The notes under the pieces were generated by a model. It made no database searches and was not told the DNA's origin. It worked only from the letters and a program-made list of their open reading frames with translations. From a virus, in IMG/VR virus record IMGVR_UViG_3300045988_159430, positions 1 to 15,643 of that record: a stretch of DNA of 15,643 nt; one strand, given 5' to 3'. This document shows positions 1 through 15,213 of this stretch, piece by piece. Made by a program: the position numbers and the translations under genes. Position 1 is the stretch's first letter. Every line of letters begins with the position of its first letter.

Positions 1-1479
1 ACTCCAGTCATTGAAGAAAGTAATTGGTTTTTCATTTCCACTAGATGTTATCAAAGTAAATGGTTTCAAATATTCTGGAGATATTATAGTTTTAGAAGTA
101 TTAAATATAATACCATTAGATAGATAATTCTCAGCTACATTATTTAATAGAAACTCTACTCTATCAGTTTCTGGATATTTATAAGCCTTGCCAGCATAAA
201 CCATATCTCCTGCATAATCTAGATGATATTCAATAAAATCTGAACTGATTATCTCATTCCAAACATAATCTTTCCAAATAGGAGATATATCAGATTTAAC
301 AGATTGTGTAATATTAATAGATAAATTAATAATACTTGAACTATTCTTTATAACAGATACTCCAATAGTTGCTTTTCTGGAAGATAATCCTGAATTTTCT
401 GCAATGTTCAAACTAATAGTTGCTACACCTTGAGGATTCACAGTTATCTTCTGTCCACTAATCCAACCTACAGGAATGCTAAATACAACATCATCTAAGT
501 TGTTTGAGCCTGTACCAGTTATATTTAATGTAGATGCAGTTCAACTTACTTCATAATTAGTATTAGGAATCATTAAAGATGTTGCAGCTTGTTTAATTGG
601 AACTGTAGCTTCAAGAGTATAACCTCCAGAAGTTGTTGCAGTAACCATTGCACTAAACTCCAAATTATTAGTAGTTTTATTCTCTGGAACAGTTAATACA
701 AAATAGTTATCAACAATATCCTTTTTAATATTACTAGCTTGAGGGCAGGTGACATTAAATGAGGTAATTGTTTCTTCTGCTTTAGTTGTACTTAAATGGA
801 ATTCTTCAGTAACAAAAGCAGATGCTCCATAAGTTCCAGATGAAGGAGTTACTACTAGCTTTAAATCTTCTGGAGTATTACTTTTTTCAATTTTAAAGCC
901 GTAACTATAACTAATAAATTTATTAGTATCATAATAAGCTCCTAATTGGATAGTTCCAATTAAATCTGTATTTCATTGAGTATTAGCTCTTACTGTAAAT
1001 TTAAACTTAATAGAGCAAGAATCCCAATCCAGAACTTCCATATTAACTAAAGCTGTAGCATTAACAACTGCTGCATTTCATTTAATAATATCTGATCTAT
1101 TTAATATATACTCTACTGTATATTCTCCACCAGTATTTGGTACTTTAATGGTGCCATTAGCAGGATAATATCCAGGAGCTTTACTATGTAAATTAATTGG
1201 TAAATCTTCCTCTAATAAAGCAGTAGTAATGCCTCTAGGATAAAAATGAAATACAGTAGAAGAATCAGTAGTTATTGTTGTAGGAGATAAAAATTGTATT
1301 GTACATCCAGAAGTACTAGGCTCTTGTATAGTTACCTCTAAAGGCCCTTCTTCAGTATAATCATCTCCCCAAGCCCAATAATCATATTCTCCAGTAATTC
1401 CCCATCCAGGATTATTCCATTTAACAGGAAAACTCCTTGATGCGTTATATATTCCTAATTTACTTGGTATAAATGCCAT
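1..1479 (-). CDS. Large structural protein with Ig/BACON-like repeats (tail fibre or receptor-binding candidate); C-terminal end runs off the window
   Basis: ATG at 1477-1479. Track ORF 1078..1479 stops at TGA (tca 1078-1080), but I checked the same frame triplet by triplet to position 1 and found no TAA/TAG, only two more in-frame TGAs (973-975, 541-543). The read-through translation contains ...NYEVSWTASTLNITGTG...VGWISGQKITVNPQGVATISLNIAENSGLSSRKATIGVSV..., which resembles BACON/Ig-like repeats. Product call is by eye only. Confidence 0.8.
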
Positions 1480-1481
1480 TT

Positions 1482-1970
1482 TTAAAAGTTTTTAAATACA
1501 TAATAATCTACTTGTCCTTGAAGATCTTTAGTTATAGCATCATCAAGAAGCTCCATATAGTTATTTTCTATATATTCTATAGTATTTGATAATGGATGTT
1601 TACCTTGAATTCCTTGAAGATGTATCTTCCTCCCAATTAAATATGTAAGCTGATCTATTGTTGGTAACTTACCATTATAAGGTCTGGGAATAATTGGCTT
1701 AGTTTTAATCCAACTCTTTATATCATTAAGTGGAGGGAACTTACCAGAATGTCTGCCTTCTTCAACGTATTTCCAATAATCTAATAAACTAACATTAACT
1801 TCATAATCCCCATTTTGGGTCTCAACAATGTAATTTAAACTATTACCTAATAATCCAGTATCATCAGTCCTTGTTTGAACCAATTCCTGTCTATATAAAG
1901 AAATTATGAGTTCTCCTCAACGTCTTAATAACTCATTTAAATTTGGGAAATTTAGTTCTTGAATATTCAT
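1482..1970 (-). CDS. HK97 gp10-like head-tail / neck structural protein
   Basis: ATG 1968-1970, TAA 1482-1484, 162 aa. Track ORF 1482..1883 is started at a TTG and extends upstream through one in-frame TGA (1917-1919, ...LLRRWGELIISLYRQELVQTR...). The motif DTGLLGNSL...LDYWKYVEEGR resembles the HK97 gp10 family signature. Confidence 0.75.
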
Positions 1971-2013
1971 TTTTGTTAAAATATATTAATTTATAGGTTA
2001 GTATCTAAACACA

Positions 2014-2036
2014 AATAGGGAGACTTACTCCCTATT
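2014..2036 (-). terminator. GC-rich hairpin, candidate intrinsic terminator or leader hairpin next to cassette copy A
   Basis: 9-bp stem AATAGGGAG (2014-2022) / CTCCCTATT (2028-2036) with a 5-nt loop. On the minus strand it is followed by TGTGTTT. It lies between the gene ending at 2092 and the gene starting at 1970. Confidence 0.5.
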
Positions 2037-2040
2037 AAGT

Positions 2041-2089
2041 GTCAAGTTTTTTACTCAAATTTAGTAGTTAAAATAAATAAAAACTGACA
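2041..2089. repeat. 49-bp conserved intergenic cassette, copy A
   Basis: GTCAAGTTTTTTACTCAAATTTAGTAGTTAAAATAAATAAAAACTGACA. The first 28 nt are identical to copy B (7706-7754). The first 17 nt and last 15 nt are identical to copy C (15161-15209). The ends form an imperfect inverted repeat (GTCAAGTTTTT / AAAAACTGAC). Confidence 0.85.
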
Positions 2090-2091
2090 TT

Positions 2092-2876
2092 TTAATGTTT
2101 TCGTTTTCATTCTTCAATTTGTCTATTTTCTTCATTAGCTTTATCTATAACATAACAAATTGTATTTAAGAACTCTTTAATTTGCATATCATAAACTTGA
2201 TGCCAATTAAATTTAGTAACCTCACTTACTTTATCTATTCAGATAATTCAGCTTCATTTTTGAGTAAAAGGAGTAACCGTCTCATCTGTATCAGACTCCT
2301 TAGAATCTTTCTCCTTTCTAATTTGTTCTTTGTTTTCTTCAATTTCTTCTTCATCTCTCTTTCCGAAGAGTGAAGGGTACTCAGAGTTGATAGTCGCAAT
2401 AAGTTTACAAAAAAAAACATTATATCTGAAAATACATCAATTGTTAAATGATTATTCAAAAACTCTGCTTCATCCAAAGGATCATAATCTTCTCCATACT
2501 TCTTACCTTCTGGTAATAAAAAGCAAGCAGCTAGATTTGGCATATAATCATCATACTTCTTATAAAAATTCTGGAAGTCTATGTATTGACTTGCAGTCAT
2601 CTTATTAACATTAAAAAAGACTTTATATTCCCTGTCTCCAATAATATATTTAGTTTCTGGAGTTTTAGGTTTATATGTACTCTCTACAAATTTAAGATTG
2701 TTAATTAATTCTTGTAATTTATTCAGCTCCATATTTTGAATTTCTTCTAAAGAAATATCACTAAGTACAGATACCATAGCTAAATTCATATCTAATTCAT
2801 TTTCTCATTCTTTTCTAATTACATCCAATAGTTTTCTATAATGAGCTAAATTCATTTCATTCCAAGATTTTATCAT
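2092..2876 (-). CDS. Phage protein needing a -1 frame change at a T9 run (tail-assembly-chaperone-like G/GT architecture, or a homopolymer indel); about 261 aa if fused
   Basis: ATG 2874-2876 lies 1 nt after the terL TAG. In-frame TGA at 2805-2807 (...VIRKEWENELD...). Frame 0 is the track ORF 2235..2789 and ends at TAG 2235-2237. After the T9 run (2409-2417) frame 0 turns R/L-rich and uses rare codons. The -1 frame reads CKLIATINSEYPSLFGKRDEEEIEENKEQIRKEKDSK...FNWHQVYDMQIKEFLNTICYVIDKANEENRQIEEWKRKH, is open to TAA 2092-2094, and contains 4 in-frame TGAs (2254, 2248, 2239, 2107). That frame has no start codon of its own: a TAA lies 15 codons upstream of the T run. Confidence 0.6.
2409..2417 (-). 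promoter_or_regulatory. T9 homopolymer (A9 on the plus strand): candidate -1 ribosomal frameshift or transcriptional slippage site
   Basis: Minus strand reads ATG TTT TTT TTT GTA. Re-reading the last T gives TGT AAA CTT..., which is the frame with protein-like composition. A T10 run would fuse the two frames directly. Confidence 0.5.
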
Positions 2877-2877
2877 A

Positions 2878-4125
2878 CTATTTAAATTTAATATTATAAT
2901 GTCCTTTAGTTGTATTTAATGAGTCATAGGCTAGCATTAATGAAATTACTGTATCATCATTAAATCCAGATGGAGCATTATAACTAATATTTCCAGTTTT
3001 TGGATTATATGAAGCTTCATATAGTCTTAACTCATTTAAAAGTTTATCATCTTTTAATAATCCTATCTTTTCATTCTCCAAAGCAGCTTGAAGCTTATTA
3101 ACTATATCTGCCTTACTCTTATTAGTAGTTAAGAATCGTATAATCCTGATTTTCGGATTCTTCTGAACTAACATATCATAGAAGACACTACCAATTGAGT
3201 TTTGTTCAACTTGCACAATCTTTATAAATCCTTGATACTCAGTTAGTATATTTGTTAATAAATCAACTTGCTCTGTTGGAGTTTTATCGTTAAAATACTT
3301 TATAAAGACCATTTGCCCAGATTCATTTAAAGCAGTAACACAAGTATAGTCTTTACCACTCCCAGTAGCCCAGTCTATTCCTATATAAAGACTCTGATAA
3401 TCTGGTTTTTTCTCAATTATGCAATTAGCTATATTATTAAATAAACATCCATCATCATCTGCAAATTCCCCTAAGTATTCGGTTCTAAATTTATTTTTTG
3501 AGGTTGTAAGTCGATACATCTCTAACTTCTCTTTATCTAAAAGCATAGATGTATCTTCTAAAGCTCAATCAAATGATTTATAGAACTTGTCATATTTCGG
3601 ATCTAACCCTTTAGTAAAGCAGTCATAAAAGAAACCCTCTCGGAACCTTGGAGTACTAATAATTAATATTGGAGCAGACCACACATCAGTAGTAGGTTTA
3701 ATAATTTCAAATACTTCATCTTTTAAGTAAGCAGCCTCATCTAATACAAGTAATCCACTTACAGAGAATCCTCGTAACGAATCCATTTGTTCTCCAGATC
3801 TAAATAATATAGAACTGCCATTATTAAACTCTAATTCAAGCAAAGTTTCATTCTTACGTTTAAGAATATCTGCTTCAGCTATAGCATTAACTATTTCTTT
3901 AAACACTTTTCTTGATTGCCCAAGAGTAGGTTCTACTATACAATTGACTGTTTTTGGATAGTTAATTGCAAATCGTAATAATTCATTTTCAGCTAAGAAA
4001 GATTTACCTACTTGTCGTTTAGCTTTAATTGTAAATATCCTTCCAGATCTATAAGCATCTGCCATAGCTATATGAACCTTATATTGGTACATAAATGGCC
4101 TATATCCTTTATATATCCTTGTCAT
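2878..4125 (-). CDS. terL: Terminase large subunit
   Basis: Track ORFs 3565..4125 and 2878..3546 are in the same frame, joined by a single TGA (3565-3567): ...KFYKSFD-W-ALEDTSMLLDKEK.... The N-terminal ATPase has Walker A KAKRQVGKS and Walker B LLVLDEAA. The C-terminal RNaseH-like nuclease begins around LYIGIDWATGSGKDYT. 415 aa, ends at TAG 2878-2880. Confidence 0.9.
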
Positions 4126-4561
4126 TTATAATAGGATCTCCAAATTTAAATTGGCATTCATTATTTTGAATATTAACTTGAATTTCTGGTTGATTTAATC
4201 CAAACATAGAATTTATTGTTTTAATAACCTCAGTAGCAGATCTTACATCATTTTTACTAATAGCAATATCCAACAATGTTTCCAATCTTGTTAATTGTAT
4301 ATGTCTTAAATTCTTTATAAGATTATCGTTTTTATCTGCAATAATCTTATAAGCTTCTCTAATATATTTAGCAGCAGTAGTTTGCCCAACTCCATATTTA
4401 GTTTGAAGTTCCTCACTTACTTTATTTCTGGACCACCCTTTATTAAATAATCTTGCTGCATAAAGATATTTAGTTTTTTGTTCGTCTATTTGATCCTCTT
4501 TTACTTCTTCCTTTTTCGGTCTCCCTATTTTCTTCGGCAGTTCCTGATTCTTTACTTTCAT
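4109..4561 (-). CDS. terS: Terminase small subunit candidate (HTH-containing)
   Basis: 150-aa ORF immediately upstream of terL with a 17-nt overlap. Basic N-terminus followed by an HTH-like segment (YLYAARLFNKGWSRNKVSEELQTKYGVGQTTAAKYIREAYK). Ends at TAA. The call rests on position plus the HTH. Confidence 0.65.
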   Translation of the reverse strand: MKVKNQELPKKIGRPKKEEVKEDQIDEQKTKYLYAARLFNKGWSRNKVSEELQTKYGVGQTTAAKYIREAYKIIADKNDNLIKNLRHIQLTRLETLLDIAISKNDVRSATEVIKTINSMFGLNQPEIQVNIQNNECQFKFGDPIINDKDI

Positions 4562-4805
4562 TTTCCTTTAGTTTTTCTTGATATTCAAAATAGATTGGGG
4601 CAATCCTCTTTATAAGATTAAGTATACAAGTAGCACAAGCTACGCTCATTCTATATTCTTGTTCAATTAAATATTCATAAATCTCTTTAAGCTTAATTAC
4701 ATCCTGCTTTTGTACATTTCTGCAATAATTAGACTTAGTTGCAGTTACAAATCTATCTTCAAATCCTCTTAAATATTTAAACTGCTCTTCTGTTAATTGT
4801 TTCAT
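4470..4805 (-). CDS. Hypothetical protein
   Basis: 111-aa ORF, ATG 4803-4805, TAA 4470-4472. The last 92 nt overlap the terS start in a different frame. The N-terminal 80 aa look like a normal globular protein. No recognisable motif. Confidence 0.6.
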   Translation of the reverse strand: MKQLTEEQFKYLRGFEDRFVTATKSNYCRNVQKQDVIKLKEIYEYLIEQEYRMSVACATCILNLIKRIAPIYFEYQEKLKENESKESGTAEENRETEKGRSKRGSNRRTKN

Positions 4806-4807
4806 AA

Positions 4808-4882
4808 TTAGCGCTTTTTAGTATAAGTAAATATAGAAATTAACTTTCCATTCTTGTAGTGATAAATAACTTCTGTTTCCAT
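4808..4882 (-). CDS. Very small ORF (24 aa), uncertain
   Basis: ATG 4880-4882 lies 12 nt after the upstream stop. TAA 4808-4810 lies 2 nt before the next ATG (4805). Peptide METEVIYHYKNGKLISIFTYTKKR. Supported only by the tight spacing. Confidence 0.2.
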   Translation of the reverse strand: METEVIYHYKNGKLISIFTYTKKR

Positions 4883-4894
4883 AAAATATAATTT

Positions 4895-5224
4895 TTAATT
4901 AATAAGTTTGTATATAACATCTATCAGCTTAGTAGATGCATCTTTTAATAATATCATAATATCTTTAATAATTGGAGTCATAAATGCTAATAGTGCAATA
5001 TACCCAACCATTAAAATTGAAAATTGACTTGTAATAAGAATATATATTAATCCAATTCACCAAGTCATACATAAACTGCAATCTAAAGGTTTTAGTCTTC
5101 AATCTTCTTTATAAGGTATACCTTTAAATAGTCTTTTTCAAATACTGTGTTTAAAACTATCCAAAGCCCCAGATAAATCAATTATAAAGACTATTATTAC
5201 TGCTATTATAAATAATTCTAACAT
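4895..5224 (-). CDS. Small integral membrane protein (about 3 TM segments)
   Basis: Not in the ORF track because of 3 in-frame TGAs (5138-5140, 5099-5101, 5057-5059). ATG 5222-5224, TAA 4895-4897, 109 aa: MLELFIIAVIIVFIIDLSGALDSFKHSIWKRLFKGIPYKEDWRLKPLDCSLCMTWWIGLIYILITSQFSILMVGYIALLAFMTPIIKD.... The C-x2-C...WW membrane motif resembles DUF1360-type proteins (by eye). Confidence 0.7.
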
Positions 5225-5463
5225 AATCTCTCTCTTATTTGTTTAATAAATCTTTGAATTGTAGTATGACTAATTCCTAATATTCTTCCCACTTCTCTAT
5301 AACTGTGATATTCAGCATATAATATGATTACTGTCTTATCTGCCTTATTAAGCTCAAGTCATTTTGGATATATACTTAATAGTCTATCATCCATATTTGT
5401 AAACATACTATAGTCTATTTCATACTCAGTAAGTAAATCGTCAATATTAATCTTCCGTTTCAT
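5218..5463 (-). CDS. Sigma-70 region 4-like protein (C-terminal half of an ECF-type sigma factor, as a separate ORF)
   Basis: Not in the ORF track (in-frame TGA 5359-5361). ATG 5461-5463 is immediately preceded by an in-frame TAA. Ends at TAG 5218-5220, 81 aa: MKRKINIDDLLTEYEIDYSMFTNMDDRLLSIYPKWLELNKADKTVIILYAEYHSYREVGRILGISHTTIQRFIKQIRERLC. This matches the region 4 pattern L--L----r-v--L-----s--EIa--lgis--TV--r---a---L. Confidence 0.65.
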
Positions 5464-5755
5464 TTAATCAATCCTCCAATTCGTCATTTTGTTGTTCAAG
5501 TGGTTCTTTAACAATCTCATAATATTTCTTATAGGTATAGTAATATCTACTTGTTTTACTAAACCAATAATTCTTAAATAATCTTGTAATCCAAAATTTC
5601 AATTCATTTTTGCTATCAAGCTGATTTAATTTTGGATTTGAATACTCTAGTATTTCTACAAAAATCATTTGAACACAGTCATCATCTGCACCAAATTTTT
5701 GCTTAAGTTCCATAATAAATGGATAGTACTTTTCTACAATTTCGTTATTACTCAT
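5447..5755 (-). CDS. Sigma-70 region 2-like protein (N-terminal half of an ECF-type sigma factor, as a separate ORF)
   Basis: Track ORF 5468..5755 ends at TGA 5468-5470. Under TGA=Trp it extends 7 codons (WLNETED) to TAA 5447-5449. ...GADDDCVQMIFVEILEYSNPKLNQLDSKNELKFWITRLFKNYWFSKTSRYY... fits the ECF region 2 pattern (D-vQ--F--l ... -Wl--i--N-----R). Confidence 0.6.
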
Positions 5756-6242
5756 ATGTTCACATATATCCTCCTGCTGTTTTTCGCTGCCCTTTAAGAA
5801 CCTTTACAATATTTCTAGATTGTATATTTAGTTCTCTCTCAGCATCTATTGCTGAATCCCATCTTTTAATAACTATTCCATTTAGTAATTGCAGTATTGG
5901 TTTCTTATGACTATATCCAGCTCGCAGATTATGAGTTCCATAATTATTATTATAATTATAAGTACACCATTCTAAATTACTTACATTATTATTTGATTTA
6001 TTTTCATCCTTATGATTTATACAAGGATAGTTATTCGGATTAGATATAAAAGTTTCAGCTACTAATCTATGTATATAACACTTCTTTTTCAAATTTTTAT
6101 TATATAATGTTACTGTAAAGTACCCATTAGTTTTTACTTGAGGTTTTAACCTCTTTGGAACTGATGCTCTTAAACTTCATATTGAGCCATCAGTTCCAAT
6201 TTGGTAGTTTTCAAAATTAAGTATTCTTTTATAGGCTATCAT
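5748..6242 (-). CDS. HNH homing endonuclease (NUMOD4-like N-terminus, HNH core, IENR1/NUMOD1-like C-terminal HTH)
   Basis: Track ORF 5760..6092 is TTG-started and TGA-ended. The same frame extends upstream through TGA 6177-6179 to ATG 6240-6242 (MIAYKRILNFENYQIGTDGSIWSLRASVPKRLKPQVKTNGYFTVTLYNKN...). It extends downstream through TGA 5760-5762 to TAA 5748-5750 (...RKTAGGYM-W-TYE). HNH core: HRLVAETFISNPNNYPCINHKDENKSNNNVSNLEWCT. Confidence 0.9.
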
Positions 6243-6666
6243 TTGCTATATAATTACTAAATTCTGTATTTACATCTATCTTAATGGCTTTCTTTAAAGA
6301 CAACTCTGTTTTTAATGAATAGCCATAAGTTCCTCCAAAATCTGTTGTAGAACAACCATATTTCATAGAATCCTTTATAAAGGCTTGTTTTATATCTTTA
6401 AATATATATACTCCATCATCAAATATTATTACTAATATAGAATTATTTCTTGATAGCATATCAAATTTATCCCTATTAATAATAGTGGTTGGATATTTAT
6501 TAGAATTAAATCTTCTCCTTTTAACTTCAATTATATAATCAATTCCATTCCAATTAAATGTTCCATCATATCTGGAGTAATCGTCTTTACATCATTCTAT
6601 GTCTATATTAAATTTCTCTTTAAATAGATTCTTTGTAAAGACTAAGCTTCTTATATCTGTTTTCAT
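6229..6666 (-). CDS. Hypothetical protein, possible PD-(D/E)XK-fold nuclease
   Basis: Track ORF 6229..6459 extends upstream in frame through TGA 6592-6594 to ATG 6664-6666, which forms a TAATG overlap with the upstream gene. 145 aa. ...SRYDGTFNWNGIDYIIEVKRRR... gives a D-x14-E-x-K arrangement. The function call is weak. Confidence 0.6.
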
Positions 6667-6905
6667 TATTTTATATTATTAATTTTAAGTGTTAAATCAC
6701 AATATTCTTCATATAAATTAGATACTTCTTCACTTGCTGGATTAATCCACATTACTGAATCTAATTTATGTTTTAATTCTGCTCTTTCTAATCTTAATTC
6801 AAATGTTTTATGTTGTCTTTCCTGATAGACTTCATTTACTCTAAAACCTGCAACAATTGAAGATGCAATTAAAAGACCAACTAAAATTTTATTTATTTTT
6901 TTCAT
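6666..6905 (-). CDS. Small protein with an N-terminal signal-anchor/TM segment; first gene of the leftward operon
   Basis: 79-aa ORF, ATG 6903-6905, TAA 6666-6668. N-terminus MKKINKILVGLLIASSIVAGF. It sits about 40 nt downstream of a consensus promoter. Confidence 0.7.
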   Translation of the reverse strand: MKKINKILVGLLIASSIVAGFRVNEVYQERQHKTFELRLERAELKHKLDSVMWINPASEEVSNLYEEYCDLTLKINNIK

Positions 6906-6942
6906 AATTTTATTATTTATAAGTTAATACTTGTTTATTATT

Positions 6943-7000
6943 GTACTACAAAGATAATACATTTTTATTCAATTTCCAAATTTTTTAGGTATTATTTTTA
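6943..7000 (-). repeat. Left arm of a 58-bp inverted repeat (promoter duplication)
   Basis: The reverse complement TAAAAATAATACCTAAAAAATTTGGAAATTGAATAAAAATGTATTATCTTTGTAGTAC aligns without gaps to 7590-7647, with about 48 of 58 identical. The last 17 nt are nearly perfect. Confidence 0.8.
6949..6980 (-). promoter_or_regulatory. Bacteroidota-type promoter driving the leftward operon
   Basis: Minus strand: TTTG (6980-6977), a 20-nt spacer, then TATCTTTG (6956-6949). This matches the Bacteroides -33 TTTG / -7 TAnnTTTG consensus. Confidence 0.6.
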
Positions 7001-7056
7001 TTATTTTCAAAAAAATATTACTATTTGTATTTTTATTATATATTAATAAAAACAAT

Positions 7057-7542
7057 ATGATTTACGTAATTAAATTAACTAAAACGAATTTTATTAAAGT
7101 TGGTTACACTACTAATATAAGTGGCAGACTAACTGCTTATAAAAATACTATTCCAAATGAGATGATAGAATTTTTTATAGCAAAAGAAGGAAATAGAGAT
7201 GATGAAAATTATTATAGAGATAAATATAGAGCATATAAAACTAAGAGTAATTCAGAATGGTTAAAACTTCCAGATGAATTAATTGTAGAGCTATTAGCAG
7301 ATTTTAAGAGTGCAAATAATATAAAAATAAATAAACAAAGCAAAAAAGAATGATATAATGAGAATATAGATAAATTAGTAGAATTGTGCTTATCTGGAGT
7401 ATCATTAAATAGAGCTGCAATTCAATTAAATGCACTAAATTGAGACTGAATAAAATATGCTAATCAAAGATACGAAAAAGAGAATGGCAAAAAATTAACA
7501 AAACTTTGGGTAAGAAAAATCAAGAAAAGTTTTGCAGAATAA
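7057..7542 (+). CDS. T5orf172-domain (GIY-YIG superfamily) protein with a C-terminal HTH-like domain
   Basis: Track ORF 7057..7353 ends at TGA. The same frame continues through TGAs at 7351-7353, 7441-7443 and 7447-7449 to TAA 7540-7542, 161 aa. N-terminus: IYVIKLTKTNFIKVGYTTNISGRLTAYKNT...SEWLKLPDE (T5orf172 pattern). C-terminus: WYNENIDKLVELCLSGVSLNRAAIQLNALNWDWIKYANQRYEKENGKKLTKLWVRKIKKSFAE. Confidence 0.8.
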
Positions 7543-7561
7543 AAATTTATTATTATATTTG
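7531..7561 (+). promoter_or_regulatory. Bacteroidota-type promoter (P1)
   Basis: TTTG 7531-7534, a 19-nt spacer, then TATATTTG 7554-7561. It overlaps the 3' end of the T5orf172 gene. Confidence 0.55.
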
Positions 7562-7589
7562 TAGTGTAAAGAAAAAAATAATTTTTTAT

Positions 7590-7647
7590 TAAAAATAATA
7601 CCCGAATTATTTGGAAATTTAATTTTTATGTATTATCTTTGTAGTAT
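7590..7647 (+). repeat. Right arm of the 58-bp inverted repeat (promoter duplication)
   Basis: TAAAAATAATACCCGAATTATTTGGAAATTTAATTTTTATGTATTATCTTTGTAGTAT is the inverted copy of 6943-7000. Confidence 0.8.
7610..7641 (+). promoter_or_regulatory. Bacteroidota-type promoter (P2), rightward twin of the leftward promoter
   Basis: TTTG 7610-7613, a 20-nt spacer, then TATCTTTG 7634-7641. Confidence 0.6.
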
Positions 7648-7669
7648 GAAACTAAAACTAATAATTCTA

Positions 7670-7695
7670 GGCAGGTGAAAATCCTGCCACTTTTT
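7670..7695 (+). terminator. Intrinsic terminator-like hairpin with T tract
   Basis: GGCAGG (7670-7675), loop TGAAAAT, CCTGCC (7683-7688), then AC TTTTT (7691-7695). It lies only about 30 nt downstream of the predicted P2 start site. Confidence 0.6.
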
Positions 7696-7705
7696 GAATC
7701 TTACT

Positions 7706-7754
7706 GTCAAGTTTTTTACTCAAATTTAGTAGTAAGAAAATAAAAATATTGACA
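7706..7754. repeat. 49-bp conserved intergenic cassette, copy B
   Basis: GTCAAGTTTTTTACTCAAATTTAGTAGTAAGAAAATAAAAATATTGACA. Same absolute orientation as copies A and C. It ends 30 nt before the helicase ATG (7785). Confidence 0.85.
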
Positions 7755-7784
7755 AAAACTTTAACTATTTAAATTATTAAAATT

Positions 7785-9506
7785 ATGAAAACATATTTAA
7801 ACAATTTGATTAATGAGTTGCCAACTAACTGTTTATTTGATAAAGGAAAAGTTGGATGTGGAGGAACTTCAATGGCAATTGAATGTAATAAGCCTTATGT
7901 TATTTGTGTTCCATTTACTAGCTTAGTTGAAAATAAACTTCAACAATATCCAAATGAAAGACGTACTGAGAAGATATTTGGAGTTTATGCTGGAGTTACT
8001 ATTAAAGAGATTAAAGATTACGTAGAGAGTGTTAAATGTCCTAAAATTATTGTTACATATAACTCACTTCCAAAAGTTATTTCTGCAGTTAATACTAAAG
8101 AATATAGTTTATTAGTAGATGAATATCATATACTATTTAATCAGTATAGCTTTAGAAAGGATGCTATTAAACCTGTTTTAGAGAACTATGAATTATTTAA
8201 AGATTTTACATTTATGACTGCTACTCCTCTTGAAGAAGAGTTTGTATTAGATGAATTAAAAGATTTAGAATTAGTAAAGCAAGAATGGGATGATGTTATT
8301 GAAACCAAGGTACAAGCCGTTAAATGTAAGAATGTTGAAGCTTCAACTATTAAATTAATTAATGCTGTTCTTAATAATCAAGTCGAAGGTAATGTTTATA
8401 TATTTGTAAATTCTGTAGACTTTATAAAGAATCTTATTCAGAAAGCTAAACTTACAGAAGAGAATACCAGAGTTATATATTCCAAAAACAATAAAACCAA
8501 ATTATCAATTCATAATTCTACAGTATTAGATGAACCTAAGAAAATAAATTTATTAACTTCTACAGTATTTGAAGGTTCTGATATTTATGATGAAAATGGA
8601 AGAATTGTAGTAGTAAGTGATGCTCAAAAAGCACAAACTCTTCTTGACATCTCAACTTCAATCCAACAGATTGCTGGCAGAATTAGAAATAGTAAATATT
8701 TAAACTGGATAACTCATCTTTACTCAGCAACAAGATATGCAGATATTAGTTATGAAGACTTTAAAAAGAAGAATATCCAGAATATTGAGGAAACTAAGAT
8801 TGCTGTAGATGCTTACAATGCAATGCCTGAAGTTGCAAGAAAGAAACTTAAAGAATTTACATCTGATACTTATATCCAAGTAAATGATGATTTTACATTT
8901 ACATTTGATCCAAATATGGCTAAGGTAGATATTTTTAACTTTAAAGTGACAAGAGGTTTATATTCTATTAGAACGAATCTTAATAAAGAATATATAAAGA
9001 ACGGATTTAAAAAAGTAGTAGAATGTGAAGACAACTCTATTAAGATTGATTTTGAATCTGATAATAAACCATTTAAAGAACTAATTAAAGAAGTTAGAAC
9101 AGAATGGGAAAATAAATTTAAACTGAATACTCCACTCTTAAATGATGCTATTATTAAATATCCTTGGTTACCAGAAGCTATTAGTAAATTAGGATTCGAA
9201 AAGATGGCAAGCTTGAAATATTGCATTTCGGATATTAAAGATGCTCTATTAAAGAAATCAAATAAAAGTGCAGATAATAAAGCAGCTAAGAAGTTAAATC
9301 AATCAATTACTCTTGGAATGTGGTATTCTAACGCTGATATTAAAAAGTTTGTTAAAGAAGCTTATGAAATTAGTGATATTACTATTACTCCAAAAGCAAC
9401 AGAAATTGATAAATATTATGAAGTTAAAAAATGCCAGAAAAGAGTAAATGGTAAACAAACTGAAGGTTATGTAATTATTAATAAAAAGTTTGTATTTAAT
9501 AAATAA
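7785..9506 (+). CDS. Superfamily 2 (DExH-type) helicase, replication/early module
   Basis: 573-aa intact ORF ending at TAA. Motif I GKVGCGGTS, motif II LLVDEYH, motif III MTATP, motif VI QQIAGRIRN. No in-frame TGA; it has 5 TGG Trp codons. Confidence 0.85.
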   Translation: MKTYLNNLINELPTNCLFDKGKVGCGGTSMAIECNKPYVICVPFTSLVENKLQQYPNERRTEKIFGVYAGVTIKEIKDYVESVKCPKIIVTYNSLPKVISAVNTKEYSLLVDEYHILFNQYSFRKDAIKPVLENYELFKDFTFMTATPLEEEFVLDELKDLELVKQEWDDVIETKVQAVKCKNVEASTIKLINAVLNNQVEGNVYIFVNSVDFIKNLIQKAKLTEENTRVIYSKNNKTKLSIHNSTVLDEPKKINLLTSTVFEGSDIYDENGRIVVVSDAQKAQTLLDISTSIQQIAGRIRNSKYLNWITHLYSATRYADISYEDFKKKNIQNIEETKIAVDAYNAMPEVARKKLKEFTSDTYIQVNDDFTFTFDPNMAKVDIFNFKVTRGLYSIRTNLNKEYIKNGFKKVVECEDNSIKIDFESDNKPFKELIKEVRTEWENKFKLNTPLLNDAIIKYPWLPEAISKLGFEKMASLKYCISDIKDALLKKSNKSADNKAAKKLNQSITLGMWYSNADIKKFVKEAYEISDITITPKATEIDKYYEVKKCQKRVNGKQTEGYVIINKKFVFNK

Positions 9507-9520
9507 AAATATTATATTTG
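9489..9520 (+). promoter_or_regulatory. Bacteroidota-type promoter (P3) inside the 3' end of the helicase gene
   Basis: TTTG 9489-9492, a 20-nt spacer, then TATATTTG 9513-9520. The next ATG (9525) is only 4 nt downstream, which implies a leaderless or near-leaderless mRNA. Confidence 0.55.
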
Positions 9521-9524
9521 TGAT

Positions 9525-9686
9525 ATGGAAGGAGATATTAAAGAAACAATTAAACAAACAGAAGAGTATATTAAAGAATTGGATAAATGAATACTTGAGT
9601 GTAAAGAAGCTACTAAAAGATTTGGTGATATTATAGATAAAGTATTAAAAAATAAAGATTATATGTTTATTTCTAAATTTGATTAA
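9525..9686 (+). CDS. Small hypothetical protein (53 aa)
   Basis: ATG 9525, in-frame TGA 9588-9590, TAA 9684-9686: MEGDIKETIKQTEEYIKELDKWILECKEATKRFGDIIDKVLKNKDYMFISKFD. Absent from the ORF track because of the TGA. Followed 2 nt later by the next ATG. Confidence 0.5.
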
Positions 9687-9688
9687 TT

Positions 9689-9829
9689 ATGGATGATTAT
9701 TTATTTAAAAAGCTTGAAGAACTAGAATACAGAATAGTTCAACTAGAAAACCAGAATAGAGGTTTAGTTTGGGAAGAAGTAGAAGAAATGCCAAAACCAG
9801 AAATTCCTAATGTAACATATACTGACTAA
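9689..9829 (+). CDS. Small hypothetical protein (46 aa)
   Basis: ATG 9689, TAA 9827-9829: MDDYLFKKLEELEYRIVQLENQNRGLVWEEVEEMPKPEIPNVTYTD. Coiled-coil-like. Tightly packed, with 1 nt before the next ATG. Confidence 0.5.
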   Translation: MDDYLFKKLEELEYRIVQLENQNRGLVWEEVEEMPKPEIPNVTYTD

Positions 9830-9830
9830 T

Positions 9831-9974
9831 ATGAAATATCAAACCTATAAAGTATGCATAAATGGAGTGTATTATGTATATGTAATACCAGAAAATAGTA
9901 GGTTTTTAGTGGACTTACAAACAGGAGATTTAATACCTAAAGAAGATGATAAATTATTTGAAATGATGGAATAA
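9831..9974 (+). CDS. Small hypothetical protein (47 aa)
   Basis: ATG 9831, TAA 9972-9974: MKYQTYKVCINGVYYVYVIPENSRFLVDLQTGDLIPKEDDKLFEMME. Last gene before the convergent terminator. Confidence 0.5.
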   Translation: MKYQTYKVCINGVYYVYVIPENSRFLVDLQTGDLIPKEDDKLFEMME

Positions 9975-9979
9975 ATGAA

Positions 9980-10005
9980 AATAGGAGGGCATAAACCCTC
10001 CTATT
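9980..10005. terminator. Bidirectional intrinsic terminator between convergent modules
   Basis: 10-bp stem AATAGGAGGG (9980-9989) / CCCTCCTATT (9996-10005) with loop CATAAA. T-rich tracts follow on both strands (TTCTGTTT on plus, TTTTCATTT on minus). It sits between the plus-strand stop at 9974 and the minus-strand stop at 10011. Confidence 0.7.
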
Positions 10006-10010
10006 TCTGT

Positions 10011-10580
10011 TTAAGCGTATTTTCAAATGTATCCTTTAGATGTTTGCTTTAATCCACTACATACTCTACTAATGGCTCCTCTATCAGTTCCTACTGCATT
10101 AGCCGCTTCAGTACAGCTTTCATATTCCTTAATAAAGTTTCCCTCTAAATCATATTGTAAAACCTTTTTACATCTTTTCTTATTATGAATTTCATTACTA
10201 ATCTTCCAAGGCAAACTATATAAATGTTTCTTACCTTTATTTGATTCTGATAGTTTCTTTCTTCATTCTGTAGAAAATTTTATTCCATAGTTGCCACCTT
10301 CACCTCCTGGCTTCAAGTTTAAACACATTGGATCTACTTCCCATTTATCTCCTATTAATTCATACTCCTTTTTAGATAATTCATCTGAATCATTACAGAA
10401 TGCAATTATTTCTTTTTTATATGCATTAGGAAATCTTTTATAGTAGTTCTTAATAATTTTACCAGAACCTTTATATGGATCTTTATATGGGTCTTTTCCT
10501 TTATAAATACGCTTACCAATGTAATATTTTCCTCTCAATGAGCCAGCAGTTAAATAAATTTTATAACAATAGTAAAACAT
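10011..10580 (-). CDS. GIY-YIG homing endonuclease (GIY-YIG core, NUMOD3-like linker, IENR1/NUMOD1-like HTH)
   Basis: Track ORFs 10263..10580 and 10023..10214 are in the same frame, joined by TGA 10263-10265 (...GIKFSTE-W-RKKLSESNKGKKHLYSLPWK...). The second ORF ends at TGA 10023-10025 and continues to TAA 10011-10013 (...TSKGYI-W-KYA). Core: YCYKIY...GKYYIGKR...EYELIG...CLNLKPGGEGG. 189 aa. TAATG overlap with the endolysin stop. Confidence 0.9.
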
Positions 10581-11032
10581 TATATAATTGTAAATTTCTG
10601 TCTTCTCTGCAAACCCTCTTTATTCTTCAGTCCTAAATGAATTCAACTAGCTATTCCATTTCTAGGTTTCTCATAAATAAGTTGATCAAAATCATACTTT
10701 TCAATAGCTTCAGTAATCCAAACCTGAAATTCTTTCATTTGGCCGTTACTTGGAATTATATCTGCTGCATATCCTGTTAGATGGGCAGATGTCAAAGATC
10801 CTCCTACAGCTTTATTAAGCTCATTACATCTATAACCTGAATTCACACTTATTGCTGGATTCCCCAACCGATTAACATCACAATACTCTGCCCAATCACT
10901 TCTTAATGGGTCTAAAAGTTTCTCGACTAACTCTATAAGGTGTTCAGTAATCTCTTTATTTGGAGTATTATCTATCTTCTTAATAGAAGCTGTATCAGAT
11001 CTTGTTAATTCACTAATAGTAAAATATTTCAT
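10580..11032 (-). CDS. Endolysin, peptidase M15 family (zinc D-Ala-D-Ala carboxypeptidase / L-Ala-D-Glu peptidase-like)
   Basis: Track ORF 10643..11032 ends at TGA 10643-10645 and continues to TAA 10580-10582 (...PRNGIAS-W-IHLGLKNKEGLQRRQKFTII). Motifs SGYRCNELNKAVGGSLTSAHLTGYAADI are typical of M15 peptidases. 150 aa. Confidence 0.9.
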
Positions 11033-11193
11033 TATTTAATAATATCTTTAAGCATAGTATAACGGTAAAATAAATGACATCCTGCACCAAGTGCTATGAG
11101 TACTAATGTAATCCAAAATGGAATTACTTTTACCATTAAAAATACTAAGATTATAATTACTATTGCTATTAAATATTTCATCCAATATTTCAT
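11032..11193 (-). CDS. Holin candidate (53 aa, two TM segments)
   Basis: ATG 11191-11193 (alternative ATG 11179-11181). TAA 11032-11034 forms a TAATG overlap with the endolysin start. MKYWMKYLIAIVIIILVFLMVKVIPFWITLVLIALGAGCHLFYRYTMLKDIIK. Too short for the ORF track. The call rests on position and topology only. Confidence 0.6.
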   Translation of the reverse strand: MKYWMKYLIAIVIIILVFLMVKVIPFWITLVLIALGAGCHLFYRYTMLKDIIK

Positions 11194-11196
11194 AAC

Positions 11197-11850
11197 TTAT
11201 TTATTTAAAATTATACTTACTTTAATTCCTGCATCTCTTAGTTTTACTCAAGTATCAACTGGCATCTCATTATCACAATAAGATAAGCCTAAAATTCCAA
11301 TATCTCTATCTTCTGATTTTAAATAGAATATTGCAATCTTATTAACATCATTAGATTTAAATGAATAATACATTCTTCTATCTAATTCCTTTATATCTTC
11401 AACATCTCCAAATCATCCTCCTTTTTTAGATGTTTCCAATATAAATAAATAATCAGATAATAGGAAGTCTTTATAGTGACTTGAAACTGGAGCAACTCCA
11501 GGTTCTGTTTCTTCACTATTCATAATTCCATAAGTGAATGGTAATCCTCCTAATCCTGAAGTGCCATTATGATACTCAATAACTCAAGCTCTATCTGCAT
11601 TCGTATCATTTAAAAGGTCTTTAAGGATATATCTAACCTTAAGATCCGCTTCTTGTCGTATTACTTGATTAGTATTATGAACTGTTTCTATATAACTTAC
11701 AACTTTATCATATATTATTCCTGGATTAGTACTTATAATTATTACATAAGAAATAAATATAAATCCAAATCCACCTTTAATTATTTTCCACAGTCCATAT
11801 TTATCTACTCATTCTAATACCTTTCCAAACCAGTTTAATTTATTTTCCAT
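11197..11850 (-). CDS. Membrane-anchored protein of unknown function, first gene of the lysis cluster
   Basis: Absent from the ORF track: 4 in-frame TGAs (11809-11811, 11584-11586, 11413-11415, 11248-11250). I translated every codon from ATG 11848-11850 to TAA 11197-11199, 217 aa: MENKLNWFGKVLEWVDKYGLWKIIKGGFGFIFISYVIIISTNPG...DRAWVIEYHNGTSGLGGLPFTYG...KKGGWFGDVEDIKELD...MPVDTWVKLRDAGIKVSIILNK. One N-terminal TM segment. Confidence 0.7.
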
Positions 11851-12275
11851 TACATATTATCAGAACAAGTACCCAGAGTGTTGTCTACAGCTAAATCAAC
11901 TCTAACAAATACTCCAGTACAAATATCTTTGAACTTCTGATAAAATGGAGTAAAAATTAAAGGATAAGAAATATCAACTTCTGGATATTGGTTATTAAAT
12001 CGGTTAATTATATTAGTTAATGCTAATATTCCAGCTGATTGCTCTTCAAGCTGATTATTATCAGTCTCATCCCATCTTGCTATAAAATAGAGATTTAAAG
12101 AGTAAGTAATAGTATCCTCATCCATATTAAATGTATTTGGAGTTATATAAAATACATTATATTCAATAGTTGGGATACTATTAAGTTCATATATATCCTT
12201 ACTTCCTACAAAATTAATATTGGGTTCTTCAAGAGCACAAGCTTTTAAATTGTTTATTAATTCAAAATACGTCAT
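11850..12275 (-). CDS. Hypothetical structural (neck/tail-completion?) protein
   Basis: Track ORF 11850..12377 overlaps the upstream gene by about 100 nt. The internal ATG 12273-12275 (MTYFELINNLK...) lies 1 nt after the upstream TAA and is the more likely start. 141 aa, ends at TAA 11850-11852. Confidence 0.65.
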   Translation of the reverse strand: MTYFELINNLKACALEEPNINFVGSKDIYELNSIPTIEYNVFYITPNTFNMDEDTITYSLNLYFIARWDETDNNQLEEQSAGILALTNIINRFNNQYPEVDISYPLIFTPFYQKFKDICTGVFVRVDLAVDNTLGTCSDNM

Positions 12276-12276
12276 T

Positions 12277-12954
12277 TTACTTACTCTTTTTATTGTTATC
12301 ACTTGAAGGGAAATCATAAGCTCTTTGCAGAGGACCTTCACAAGAATTATATCTCCAACCTTTACCTCTAGCTCCACCTAACCAAATAGTGCAAGATGAA
12401 CTTGAATACATATTTGGATACATATCTTTAAGAGGTTTATAAGAATACAATTCAGGAAAATCATTATAATATGTAATTACCCAATTTTGCAATCTAGTTT
12501 TAAAGAAATCTGCTTTATCTCTATAATACTTCTTAATAAGATTAACTTGATTAATATCAGAAGTTAAATCTTTCTCATCATCAGTCCTCATAACCCCAAA
12601 ATTACTCAGCTTAAATGAGATGGGTATAGTAATCTCACTTAATACTTGATAAAGTAAATAAGGCTGAATATAGTAATCTAGCAATTCTTTATATCTATGA
12701 TTTTCTGGGTCATCTATTGAAGTAGGATCATAAATAGGAGGTTCTATTGGATGAACTGGTTTATTTGGATCTTTTCAATCAATTACTAATTTCTGAATCT
12801 TTTCTAAGAGCTTAGTTCCAATTAATGACTGAAGCTCAATATCTTGTGCAAGTTTAATTGCTGACTGAAGATATTTACCAGAAACATTATTGTCTAAATT
12901 GGATTCTGATTTTATATAATCTTCAGATATTAATAGTACATTTCTATATTCCAT
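12277..12954 (-). CDS. Head-tail connector / adaptor-like protein (gp6-like N-terminus)
   Basis: Track ORF 12277..12684 is TTG-started and extends upstream through TGA 12775-12777 to ATG 12952-12954: MEYRNVLLISEDYIKSESNLDNNVSGKYLQSAIKLAQDIELQSLIGTKLLEKIQKLVIDWKDPNKP.... This N-terminal pattern resembles head-tail connector proteins. 225 aa, ends at TAA. Confidence 0.7.
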
Positions 12955-13597
12955 AATAATATTTATAATTTTTGCAGGGTTTATTTTTTCTACAAGATCT
13001 AGATATACTAGAAGAATCTACATTATTCTTCTCTCCAGCTTCCTTAGCTGATTTATACTCACAAATAAAATTACCATCTAAATCATACTTATATACTTTT
13101 TTGCACTGACGTTCTGAAATTAGTTGTTTTTCTTTATCTGAGAGTTTCATACCTTTATTTCAAGGAGTTTTGCCTAATCTTGCCTCCCTCATTTTACGCT
13201 TGCTTTCATCTGAATGCTGTTTACCATAAAATGAGTTATTTTCTCCTGATCTTATAATTCTAAGACTATCTTTATAATCTTGTGAAAAAGAATATCCACA
13301 AGTACCGTCTCCTCCATCAGTTAAATTATACCCATATTTTGGATTTCTAGTATTATACTTATAAATCAGAATCTTTTCTAAAGTCTTAGCACAAGCTTCT
13401 GGAAGATTATCTCTAATTATAATATGCTCAAAATTATCTCAACCATATTTTTTAATTGCTCTGCTAAAATAAAGATTATTCTTGTAACCTTGACCTTTAG
13501 TTCCCCATCTATTATTTAAAGTAAGTGATGTTATTCCAAAATATAATTTATTATCAGCTATATTCTTATGGCAGTACACTGTATAATTATTCAACAT
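12944..13597 (-). CDS. GIY-YIG homing endonuclease inserted between the portal and connector genes
   Basis: Track ORF 12944..13150 is only the C-terminal HTH. The same frame continues upstream through TGAs 13160-13162 and 13439-13441 to ATG 13595-13597. 217 aa: MLNNYTVYCHKNIADNKLYFGITSLTLNNRWGTKGQGYKNNLYFSRAIKKYG-W-DNFEHIIIRDNLPEACAKTLEKILIYKYNTRNPKYGYNLTDGGDG...ENNSFYGKQHSDESKRKMREARLGKTP-W-NKGMKLSDKEK.... Ends at TAG 12944-12946. Confidence 0.9.
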
Positions 13598-14678
13598 TTT
13601 CTGCATTGTCTGACATTCCTTTTGGAGTTAAACTAAATGGTTCAATAGTAATACTATTCTTAATGCCGAAGATTTTATCAAATGAGTCACAAATTTCTGA
13701 TTGTATTGGGCGTACAAAAGTACGATTATATAGCTTAAATGCTTCATTAAACTCATTTTCATTAAATCCTGAGCTATAGTTTAAACCGAACAACGAAGGA
13801 TTAGCTCTGAAGGCACAGAATATTTGATCTCTGGTTCTCTCAGATAATGATTGATATTTCTCATCAAAATCATCAGAATCTAATCTTTCAATAGTAGTCT
13901 TATTTGCCTCATCTGCATTATATGAAATCAATATTCTGCCAGCATTCTGATAACCAGAGAACTTCTCATTAATATTCCTCTCAATCTCCTCTCTAATTTC
14001 ATCTGTAGGTTCCCCATTATTAAAGTTAATAATAAGATTACCCATAAATCCATTATTGATGTTATTTAAATGGAATTCATTAATATTTTTCTCAGTTTCA
14101 CAAGATAAAATAGCAGCTCCATAAACAGGAATAGGATATACTCCTCTTGTTATATAACCTTTATTATAAAATATACTAGCTGGATTTTCATCCCCAGCTC
14201 CAAATTTTGGATATTTTATAGCTTTTACAGACCAAGCTGTCCAATCAGTTGCATAATATAATATATCATTCTTTTCGCTTGACCTTACATTCATAAAATC
14301 AATATGATATATCTCTGCAACTCTTCCGAGCATATCTCTAATTACTTGGATAGCATAACCTCCAAATATCATCTTATCAATAGTGATTTTTCTCATTATA
14401 TCAACTATTGTTTCACCTTTCTTGTTTACAACTACTTCAAATCCTGGAGCATTACATTTAACATCGTTACCAACAATAAAGTCAGCAGAACCATTAATAA
14501 TGGATTGGAGAGTGGCAACATTTAAATATAAATCCCATAGATATAATGGATATTTGTTATCTTCTCCCCACATTACATAATCTTTTCCCCTCACTTTAGT
14601 TTCTGTAGGTAATACGATATTACTTGCAATAAATGGATCAATAGCACTTAACTGAACTTTTGTTTTATTTTCGCTCAT
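13587..14678 (-). CDS. Portal protein
   Basis: 363-aa intact ORF (ATG 14676-14678, TAA 13587-13589). ...YVMWGEDNKYPLYLWDLYLNVATLQSIINGSADFIVG..., GGYAIQVIRDMLGRVAEIYHIDFMNVR, NNGFMGNLIINFNNGEPTDEIREEIERNINEKFSGYQNAGRILISY...DEKYQSLSERTRDQIFCAFRANPSLFGL match the Phage_portal / PBSX-type portal pattern by eye. Confidence 0.85.
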   Translation of the reverse strand: MSENKTKVQLSAIDPFIASNIVLPTETKVRGKDYVMWGEDNKYPLYLWDLYLNVATLQSIINGSADFIVGNDVKCNAPGFEVVVNKKGETIVDIMRKITIDKMIFGGYAIQVIRDMLGRVAEIYHIDFMNVRSSEKNDILYYATDWTAWSVKAIKYPKFGAGDENPASIFYNKGYITRGVYPIPVYGAAILSCETEKNINEFHLNNINNGFMGNLIINFNNGEPTDEIREEIERNINEKFSGYQNAGRILISYNADEANKTTIERLDSDDFDEKYQSLSERTRDQIFCAFRANPSLFGLNYSSGFNENEFNEAFKLYNRTFVRPIQSEICDSFDKIFGIKNSITIEPFSLTPKGMSDNAENVE

Positions 14679-15057: not shown

Positions 15058-15132
15058 ATTTTACAGCAATTTACATTAGTTTTACATATCTTTTTCTTAA
15101 AATATAAACCAATTTACTAATGTATTAAAATA

Positions 15133-15209: not shown

Positions 15210-15213
15210 AAAA

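Follow-up and report, generated by a model that had tools for sequence, protein, structure and literature searches.

Tail assembly chaperones of the G/GT type are encoded between the genes for the major tail (tube) protein and the tape measure protein as two products with one N-terminus, the longer arising through a programmed shift of -1 or, rarely, +1 or -2; the shared domain binds the tape measure protein and the extension the tube protein, neither is present in virions, and their ratio has to be fixed. The gpE/E+E' pair of phage P2 (Phage_TAC_7, PF10109) is produced by a -1 frameshift on the T-rich heptamer TTTTTTG. In phage lambda, gpG and gpGT are two products of a single start with a common N-terminal domain, the long form being made by a -1 shift, and this small, non-enzymatic pair is encoded in the tail-gene module in an arrangement that is kept over wide divergence (Xu, Hendrix, Duda; PMC5009743). 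Out-of-frame extensions can also be reached through slippage by RNA polymerase, in which case the mRNA varies in run length and the DNA does not. For the bacterial enzyme, slippage becomes effective and is used for expression once a run reaches nine A/T, and it is at that length that bacterial genomes show both selection against A/T runs and their use (Baranov et al. 2005, PMC1088944). Runs of nine nucleotides (nt) are used by Thermus dnaX and Shigella mxiE (PMC5009743), and the systems of this kind, including Thermus thermophilus dnaX, Shigella mxiE/spa13 and insertion sequence (IS) elements (PMC1088944, PMC5009743), have exactly nine A/T within the coding region, gain the extension through one added mRNA base, need no stimulatory RNA structure, and have a third frame that stops at once. 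Here we describe a gene with features of each, designated gene X, that directly follows the large terminase subunit gene (terL) on the minus strand of IMG/VR virus record IMGVR_UViG_3300045988_159430; positions 1 to 15,643 of that record, the whole stretch of DNA that was analysed, are referred to as the window. Gene X is coded in frame 0 and, beyond a run of nine T (T9), also in the -1 frame, and recoding at this run is, in our judgement, almost certainly real and programmed.

Like lambda G/GT, gene X has one start and two predicted products with a common N-terminal domain, the longer of which is proposed to arise by a -1 shift; in both systems the gene is small, non-enzymatic and in a tail-gene module, and the arrangement persists over wide divergence. 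With P2 gpE/E+E' it shares a U-rich slippery site, a -1 extension and a place in a tail-gene operon, and with the A9/T9 slippage systems it shares exactly nine A/T in the coding region, an extension obtainable with one added base and no apparent need of RNA structure, and a third frame with an immediate stop. There are also clear differences. Unlike G/GT, frame 0 of gene X goes on for 57 conserved codons past the shift site, giving a 171 nt dual-coding overlap and no early stop, the usual site is a T9 homopolymer and not a heptamer with a nearby stop, and gene X is flanked by terL, which it directly follows, and by a neck or tail-completion-like gene. Unlike the known tail assembly chaperone (TAC) families, it is without sequence or fold similarity to any of them; compared with P2 gpE the protein is about twice the size, the gene order is different, and matches to PF10109 fall far below the Pfam threshold. 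Unlike the A9/T9 systems, the run of gene X also holds an in-frame ribosomal heptamer, and slippage is here a prediction from the sequence. The gene X family mixes T9 and heptamer-plus-hairpin sites at the same codon, which recalls dnaX (ribosomal in Escherichia coli, transcriptional in Thermus), yet does so within one phage gene family.

The window has a GC content of about 28% and uses TGA as a sense codon. The frame-0 open reading frame (ORF) of gene X (2235..2876, minus strand, as are all gene X features) runs from the ATG at 2876 to a TAG at 2235-2237 and encodes a short product of 213 amino acids (aa), which is the canonical protein of the family. Its first 156 aa (2409..2876), ending in ...DIMFFF, form an alpha/beta domain of net charge -10 that would be present in both products. 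They are followed by the T9 run (2409..2417; U9 in the mRNA and A9 on the plus strand), which is read as codons TTT TTT TTT in phase 0, is the only homopolymer of at least nine in the window, and contains the in-frame slippery heptamer T_TTT_TTT (2409..2415), of the X_XXY_YYZ type. Past the run, frame 0 continues as VNLLRLS...AELSE to its TAG. In the -1 frame, with base 2409 read twice, (MFFF) is followed by CKLIATINSEYPSLFGK...EEWKRKH, an arm of 105 codons that ends at the TAA at 2092-2094 (2092..2409), so that the predicted long product is a 261-aa fusion with the junction peptide MFFFCKLIATINSEYPSLFGK. In the dual-coding overlap (2238..2408) frame 0 specifies a basic helical hairpin (net charge +10) and the -1 frame a short helix and acidic linker (net charge -6). 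The arm also includes a conserved C-domain found in the long product only (2095..2259; KWSWIIWIDKVSE...EFLN..CY..DK...IEEWKRKH), with two predicted helices, -1 frame periodicity and conservation among relatives. A stop lies about 14 codons upstream of the run in the -1 frame, and no ATG, GTG or TTG is found between that stop and the T9 run in the window; the -1 arm is therefore predicted to be reachable solely via slippage at the T run, as had been claimed. All of the coordinates and lengths in the original prediction (ATG 2876, T9 2409-2417, TAG 2235, TAA 2092, 105 codons, 4 TGAs, 261 aa) were correct on recheck.

The -1 arm of the window has four TGA codons (codons 51, 53, 56 and 100) and a single TGG. 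Codons 51, 53 and 100 align with invariant Trp residues of standard-code relatives, which indicates that TGA is read as Trp in the window. terL, the portal gene and other window genes likewise require sense TGA, no tRNA gene, and hence no suppressor, was found within the window, and the gene X family is also present in standard-code phages.

A scan of IMG/VR gave 20 related loci with 37–99% amino acid identity, and independent Logan and ENA loci were added via database homologues. Close loci were available from at least 10 samples and several assemblers, and 31 of the 34 have a run of exactly nine T's, with the N-terminal part in frame 0 and the C-terminal part in the -1 frame, so the comparison of homologous contigs bears out the conserved pairing of two frames with a T9 run. 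Among full loci at 37–99% amino acid identity, T9 and both arms are found in 30 of 30, and their geometry is constant: frame 0 extends for 57 aa past the run (54 aa in one group), the -1 frame for 105 aa, and the overlap is free of indels. Recurrence of this kind is well outside what chance would give.

Three motif-based scans (of IMG/VR, GTDB genomes and JGI metagenomes) gave 166 further loci, and in total 184 loci with a complete -1 arm, ranging from 25 to 63% GC, keep the two-frame arrangement; they form 90 clusters when grouped at 70% identity of the -1 arm. This supports the prediction of a short product with a -1 extended long form. The consensus of the -1 arm across the 184 loci is ..IN.GYP.LF, an acidic linker, and F..KWGWI..VD.VSE..R..W..V......EFLN.L.Y..DK......IE.WK..H. 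The motif that begins the arm, [ILVF]Nxx[YF]xxL[FL], starts no more than 25 residues past the run in 127 of 153 loci, and upstream of the run the median open stretch in the -1 frame is just 14 codons. Since the -1 frame is closed shortly upstream and the conserved motif begins right downstream, translation would enter the -1 frame at the run itself.

Both arms show signs of coding. When codon-position variability was compared across eleven representative sequences (positions 1/2/3 in frame-0 numbering), the N-terminal domain gave 0.26/0.13/0.46, a frame-0 periodicity, and the region past the frame-0 stop gave 0.13/0.38/0.22, a -1 periodicity. The 171 nt overlap was flat (0.32/0.29/0.37), with frame-0 periodicity in its middle third. 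These patterns support the presence of two reading frames. By synonymous-codon resampling, the probability that frame 0 would be open given the -1 protein is 0.02–0.28 per lineage, and that the -1 frame would be open given the frame-0 protein is 0.001–0.04. The original prediction regarded the frame-0 tail as an aberrant stretch of rare codons, a view that has to be abandoned. All 87 of 87 close database homologues are the short form (184–216 aa), and a profile search of 1.84 billion representatives returned 1991 clusters, 972 of them at E<=1e-10, nearly all 200–225 aa long and matching through the frame-0 tail. AlphaFold2 modelling of the short form, using a homologue 94% identical to the window protein, gave a predicted local distance difference test (pLDDT) score of 88 and a predicted template modelling (pTM) score of 0.75, and shows an alpha/beta domain in which the last helix (residues 146–181) passes straight through the FFF residues before the chain turns back to form a hairpin (185–212). 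As the tail is matched by 1991 clusters and modelled as a hairpin continuous with the domain, it is neither aberrant nor junk; it is the conserved helical hairpin with which the canonical proteins of the family end. The model of the -1 arm has a short helix, an acidic linker and a two-helix C-domain, with pLDDT of 70–91 in the C-domain helices and poor values in the linker, and this C-domain is conserved family-wide, including standard-code and GC-rich lineages.

A fold search with the short-form model retrieved 32 uncharacterized proteins of uncultured phages and one from a cultured phage, Nonlabens (Persicivirga) phage P12024S. The P12024S genome (JQ823122) uses the standard code, has 35.5% GC, and carries the homologue (P12024S_38, 175 aa) directly after terL. 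There is a T9 run at 23578 in P12024S_38, and the -1 frame runs on through P12024S_39, annotated as a gene of its own, where the motifs of the other -1 arms recur (LYPELY, FSLKWSW). The -1 extension of P12024S_38 (locus L034, 23136-23830 of JQ823122) thus has as its 3' portion what is annotated as the coding sequence (CDS) P12024S_39, and neither GenBank nor RefSeq annotates a frameshift. Searches of GenBank phages by megablast with the window and by tblastn with the fusion, P0110 and a C-domain gave no match, and the P12024S-type protein matched only the two Nonlabens phages. A search for naturally fused homologues with the C-terminal 105 aa returned only four stand-alone ORF calls, two of them from homopolymer-error contigs. 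No account of the gene X family or of its shift site was found in the literature.

Some members depart from the usual layout or come from longer contigs. In the lineage of L105, L107 and L110 (IMGVR_UViG_3300001485_000027 and the 65 kb contig 3300037249_000989), frame 0 ends three codons past T9, as in G/GT, and the hairpin tail is lacking; the 65 kb contig carries two copies with a -1 arm of only 9 codons, which may be degenerate. Locus L112 (NZ_DBFWLF010000004.1), a T9 member, lies inside a 218 kb contig of an Alistipes sp. metagenome-assembled genome (MAG), a context that suggests that this member belongs to a prophage and that part of the family has Bacteroidota hosts. Host assignment is unreliable for the remaining genome matches, which are short MAG contigs.

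The shift site was compared across the 90 clusters. T9 is found in 72, and in all three codon phases: phase 0 in 30 clusters, phase 1 in 4 and phase 2 in 38. Shorter runs account for the others, with T8 in one cluster (phase 1), T7 in 14 (phase 2) and T6C (T_TTT_TTC) in three (phase 2). An in-frame X_XXY_YYZ heptamer is kept in all 90 clusters, including all 18 with T6C, T7 or T8. Two further loci are without a T run: in L120 the in-frame heptamer is G_GGT_TTT, and in L136 only T_TTT_C is present. The T6C and T7 clusters (n=17) are all in the permissive phase, for which the chance expectation is (1/3)^17 = 8e-9, and since every short run sits in the phase that gives a heptamer, ribosomal -1 frameshifting clearly works in the family. 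A null model in which only the heptamer is required, built from codon-position T frequencies of 0.17/0.32/0.25, predicts T7 in 57%, T8 in 30% and T9 in 9% of cases. The observed frequency of T9 is 72/87 (binomial 4e-59), and the T8:T9 ratio is 1:72, compared with about 3:1 expected. Depending on the phase, the two extra T's lie upstream of the heptamer, on both sides of it or downstream, and the total is still nine. Such a phase-blind need for nine T's is what RNA polymerase slippage predicts, and the suggestion that T9 is a site of transcriptional slippage is, on these counts, a plausible one.

RNA structure also differs between the site types. In the window lineage, RNAalifold detected no conserved structure upstream of the run and only a 6 bp hairpin about 40 nt downstream, without covariation, and no Shine-Dalgarno (SD)-like element accompanies T9 in that lineage. 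In the short-run lineages there are often long stems that begin 3–7 nt past the heptamer: a stem of at least 8 bp at a distance of 0–9 nt is present in 11 of 18 short-run clusters versus 12 of 68 T9 clusters (Fisher 5.6e-4; Mann-Whitney 3.9e-4).

In the reading that we favour, and to which we give somewhat better than an even chance, gene X is one gene with two products that form a G/GT-like chaperone pair, transcription being the main route to the long form in the window and a heptamer with a hairpin serving as the ribosomal route in short-run relatives. Gene X would encode two proteins with a common N-terminal domain of 156 aa. From T9 phage DNA, most transcripts would carry U9 and, by standard decoding, give the 213-aa canonical form that ends in the basic helical hairpin. 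In a minority of expression events a shift to the -1 frame at T9 would give a 261-aa protein with the acidic linker and conserved C-domain in place of the hairpin. RNA polymerase is envisaged to slip on nine rU:dA pairs that fill the hybrid and to add one U, after which the U10 mRNA would be in frame as MFFF-CKLIAT.... The in-frame U_UUU_UUU inside the run could act as a second, minor ribosomal route to the same protein, and relatives with only T7, T6C or G_GGT_TTT would use classical ribosomal -1 frameshifting aided by the downstream stem-loop. When window transcripts were translated in silico, U10 mRNA gave the 261-aa fusion and U7 a 260-aa protein, and U8 and U11 stopped at once (156–157 aa).

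The features expected of transcriptional slippage, an A/T run of at least nine that fills the RNA:DNA hybrid and a run length that is kept whatever the phase, are found in the T9 at 2409-2417 and in the 30, 4 and 38 clusters of the three phases, respectively. For a ribosomal cassette, the window has the in-frame X_XXY_YYZ heptamer but not the stimulatory stem-loop or pseudoknot about 5–9 nt away, nor an SD-like element; many T6C, T7 and T8 relatives do have a stimulatory stem. The junction peptide cannot separate the two routes, because ribosomal slippage on U_UUU_UUU gives the same product. What the sequences show is that gene X is coded in two frames, that this is conserved, and how run length and phase are distributed; the slippage mechanism and the product ratio we infer.

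Several observations weigh against this reading. Every T9 includes an in-frame U_UUU_UUU, so ribosomal frameshifting alone could yield the long form, and the T6C, T7 and T8 lineages prove that ribosomal -1 frameshifting occurs at the gene X site. T7 and T9 are found together within two clusters (at least 70% identity), which indicates that these site types are interchangeable over short evolutionary distances, and they may be equivalent for the ribosome. The contrast in stems is partly confounded by GC content (0.46 in the short-run and 0.41 in the T9 group), 12 T9 clusters do carry stems, and the cluster counts are phylogenetically non-independent. As for function, we infer it from synteny and analogy, there being no TAC fold or sequence match.

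The strongest rival explanation is that -1 frameshifting is purely ribosomal, with tandem tRNA-Phe slippage on U_UUU_UUU in all lineages and the two extra T's either tuning efficiency or simply inherited. The classical route in tail chaperone genes is a ribosomal frameshift (PMC5009743). Only the X_XXY_YYZ heptamer is shared by all lineages, the 17 T6C and T7 clusters are without exception in the sole permissive phase, L120 uses G_GGT_TTT, and T7 and T9 have been swapped between close relatives. However, this explanation does not account for a total of nine whichever side of the heptamer holds the extra T's (phases 0, 1 and 2), or for the near absence of T8, which should be equally competent for the ribosome, and it meets T9 in the window lineage without a stimulatory structure or SD-like element, with stems enriched in the short-run lineages. 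We consider it possible but rather unlikely.

A different explanation places the variation in the DNA: replication slippage would toggle genomes between T9 (short form) and T10 or T7 (long form), and a mixed infection or heterogeneous population would supply both proteins. T9 tracts are hypermutable, and rare T10 or T7 contigs do occur inside T9 lineages, as with L043 (2461, compared with L036-L042) and protein P0140, which could be either true T10 variants or errors. The exceptions among the 34 close loci also have a 10-nt or T7 tract that joins both frames: L025 (TTCTTTTTTT; 1791), L031 (T10; 396) and L032 (T7; 3415). Each of these three shows a further indel a few bases before the run or a broken terL, and they are for that reason likely homopolymer errors. 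Variants of these kinds are scarce (about five among upwards of 220 loci or proteins), the two products would have to be present in one cell, and the lineages with non-homopolymeric heptamers (T6C, G_GGT_TTT) retain the two-frame design without a mutable tract. Phase variation is thus very improbable. Relatives with a single uninterrupted ORF and no homopolymer, which the original prediction named as evidence that would tell against it, were sought, and only the rare T10-type variants (L043, P0140 and L025) came to light.

Even less credible is the arrangement implied by the GenBank annotation of P12024S_39, in which the -1 arm is a separate gene translated alone from an internal start. The arm is sometimes called as its own ORF (P0088-P0091 and P12024S_39), and the short upstream -1 stretch contains an ATG or GTG in 38 of 153 loci, but that stretch has no potential start in the window, conservation in the -1 frame begins at the run (motif IN..YP.LF) and upstream of any internal ATG, and the slippery site is kept exactly where the frame is entered. 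Lastly, the idea raised in the original prediction that the true run is T10 and gene X a plain 261-aa ORF can be dismissed as an extremely remote chance, since, prone to error as homopolymers are and despite the few contigs with frame-fusing 10-nt or T7 tracts (L025, L031, L032, L043 and protein P0140), the T9 run recurs across independent samples, with 31 of the 34 close loci carrying it, and is shared by a cultured phage and by 72 of the 90 clusters, the frame-0 tail is conserved and well folded across about 2000 protein clusters, and L025, L031 and L032 each have further indels nearby or a broken terL.

The neighborhood of gene X provides a context for its function. terL (2878..4125, minus strand; Pfam Terminase_6N/6C, PHROG phrog_2) has its stop 1 nt before the gene X ATG. 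Downstream is the partner gene p162 (1482..1970, minus strand), with a weak likeness to tail completion or Neck1 proteins (phrog_29822, E=2.8e-6; phrog_5, E=1e-4), and in 74 of 77 loci the next gene after gene X is a p162 homologue. In P12024S, gene X is followed by genes for large BACON-domain, baseplate or tail-fibre-like proteins and a weak tape measure match, and then by the genes for the head protease and major head protein. Judged by this gene order, gene X opens the tail-gene module. Together with the two products of common N-terminus expected from a programmed -1 shift, whose coding is conserved in 184 loci and whose entry point is a slippery site, this position suggests that the short and long proteins probably work as an assembly chaperone pair at a fixed ratio, much as lambda G and GT do.

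The earlier proposal of a G/GT-type chaperone holds, then, for the architecture and for the placement at the head of a tail-gene module, but not for gene order or similarity to known families. Gene X is not between the major tail (tube) and tape measure genes; the order in the window is terL, gene X, p162, and the only gene in P12024S resembling one for a tape measure protein (phrog_58, E 2e-4) comes about 6.5 kb, or six genes, after the gene X homologue. Profile and structure searches for a TAC family were likewise unproductive. No Pfam or PHROG family was found for the window protein or 10 relatives, and Phage_TAC_7 (PF10109) matched just two of 46 members, weakly and below threshold (E 0.0065), with no match to the window protein. 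The short-form model had no relative in the PDB by Foldseek, and none was found by profile against PDB sequences. Among BFVD entries for TAC proteins it matched only at E 0.36 or worse, and the model of the C-terminal part, which is poor in the linker, had no match in BFVD. Proteins of the family are labeled hypothetical in all sources, and none is named.

Between gene X and p162 is a 19 nt promoter-like repeat, TGAGTAAAAAACTTGACAC ('cassette A'; 2039..2057, minus strand), that contains a TTGACA box and is not part of the recoding signal. Three copies are found in the window, at 2039-2057, 7704-7722 and 15159-15177 (minus strand), compared with 0.01 expected, and a role as phage promoter cassettes is probable. 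An inverted repeat, GGGAG-TAAGT-CTCCC, comes after the copy that follows gene X and could form a hairpin at about 2018-2032. When loci L014-L020 are compared with window positions 2092-4125, terL is about 99% identical and gene X only about 38–56% (these are of the phase-1 T9 class), and this mosaicism places a recombination junction at the border of terL and gene X. Four window ORFs are homing-endonuclease-like (HNH-like, T5orf172/MUG113-like and two GIY-YIG-like; 5748-6242, 7057-7542, 10011-10580 and 12944-13606), and L001 has an extra HNH-like ORF at 3174-3659 that is not in the otherwise near-identical window, a difference that suggests gain and loss of mobile endonuclease genes.

Gene X, with its two predicted products and its place at the start of the tail module in a widespread group of phages, likely encodes an assembly chaperone of a new kind. 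What makes its shift site of interest is how large and anonymous the family is, the coding of the overlap in two frames, and statistics of run length and phase that point to transcriptional slippage and ribosomal frameshifting alternating at one codon. About 2000 protein clusters (at 50% identity) lack annotation of what is a real conserved product, and the long form is never annotated; in GenBank JQ823122 its 3' part is listed as a separate ORF. The family ranges from phages of marine Flavobacteriia to recoded human- and animal-associated phages, and its cultured member, Nonlabens phage P12024S, opens it to experiments. The nine-T peak in three phases, the scarcity of T8, and the heptamer with a hairpin elsewhere make a testable case for transcriptional slippage in most lineages and ribosomal frameshifting in others. 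The most general view, that this is a large unannotated tail-module family with obligatory -1 recoding, carried out interchangeably by polymerase slippage at T9 or by a heptamer and hairpin, with lineages switching between the two, we hold tentatively, at a little short of an even chance. If true, it would be the first widespread programmed transcriptional slippage in a structural gene of tailed phages, and the family would be a natural comparative system in which transcriptional and translational recoding replace each other.

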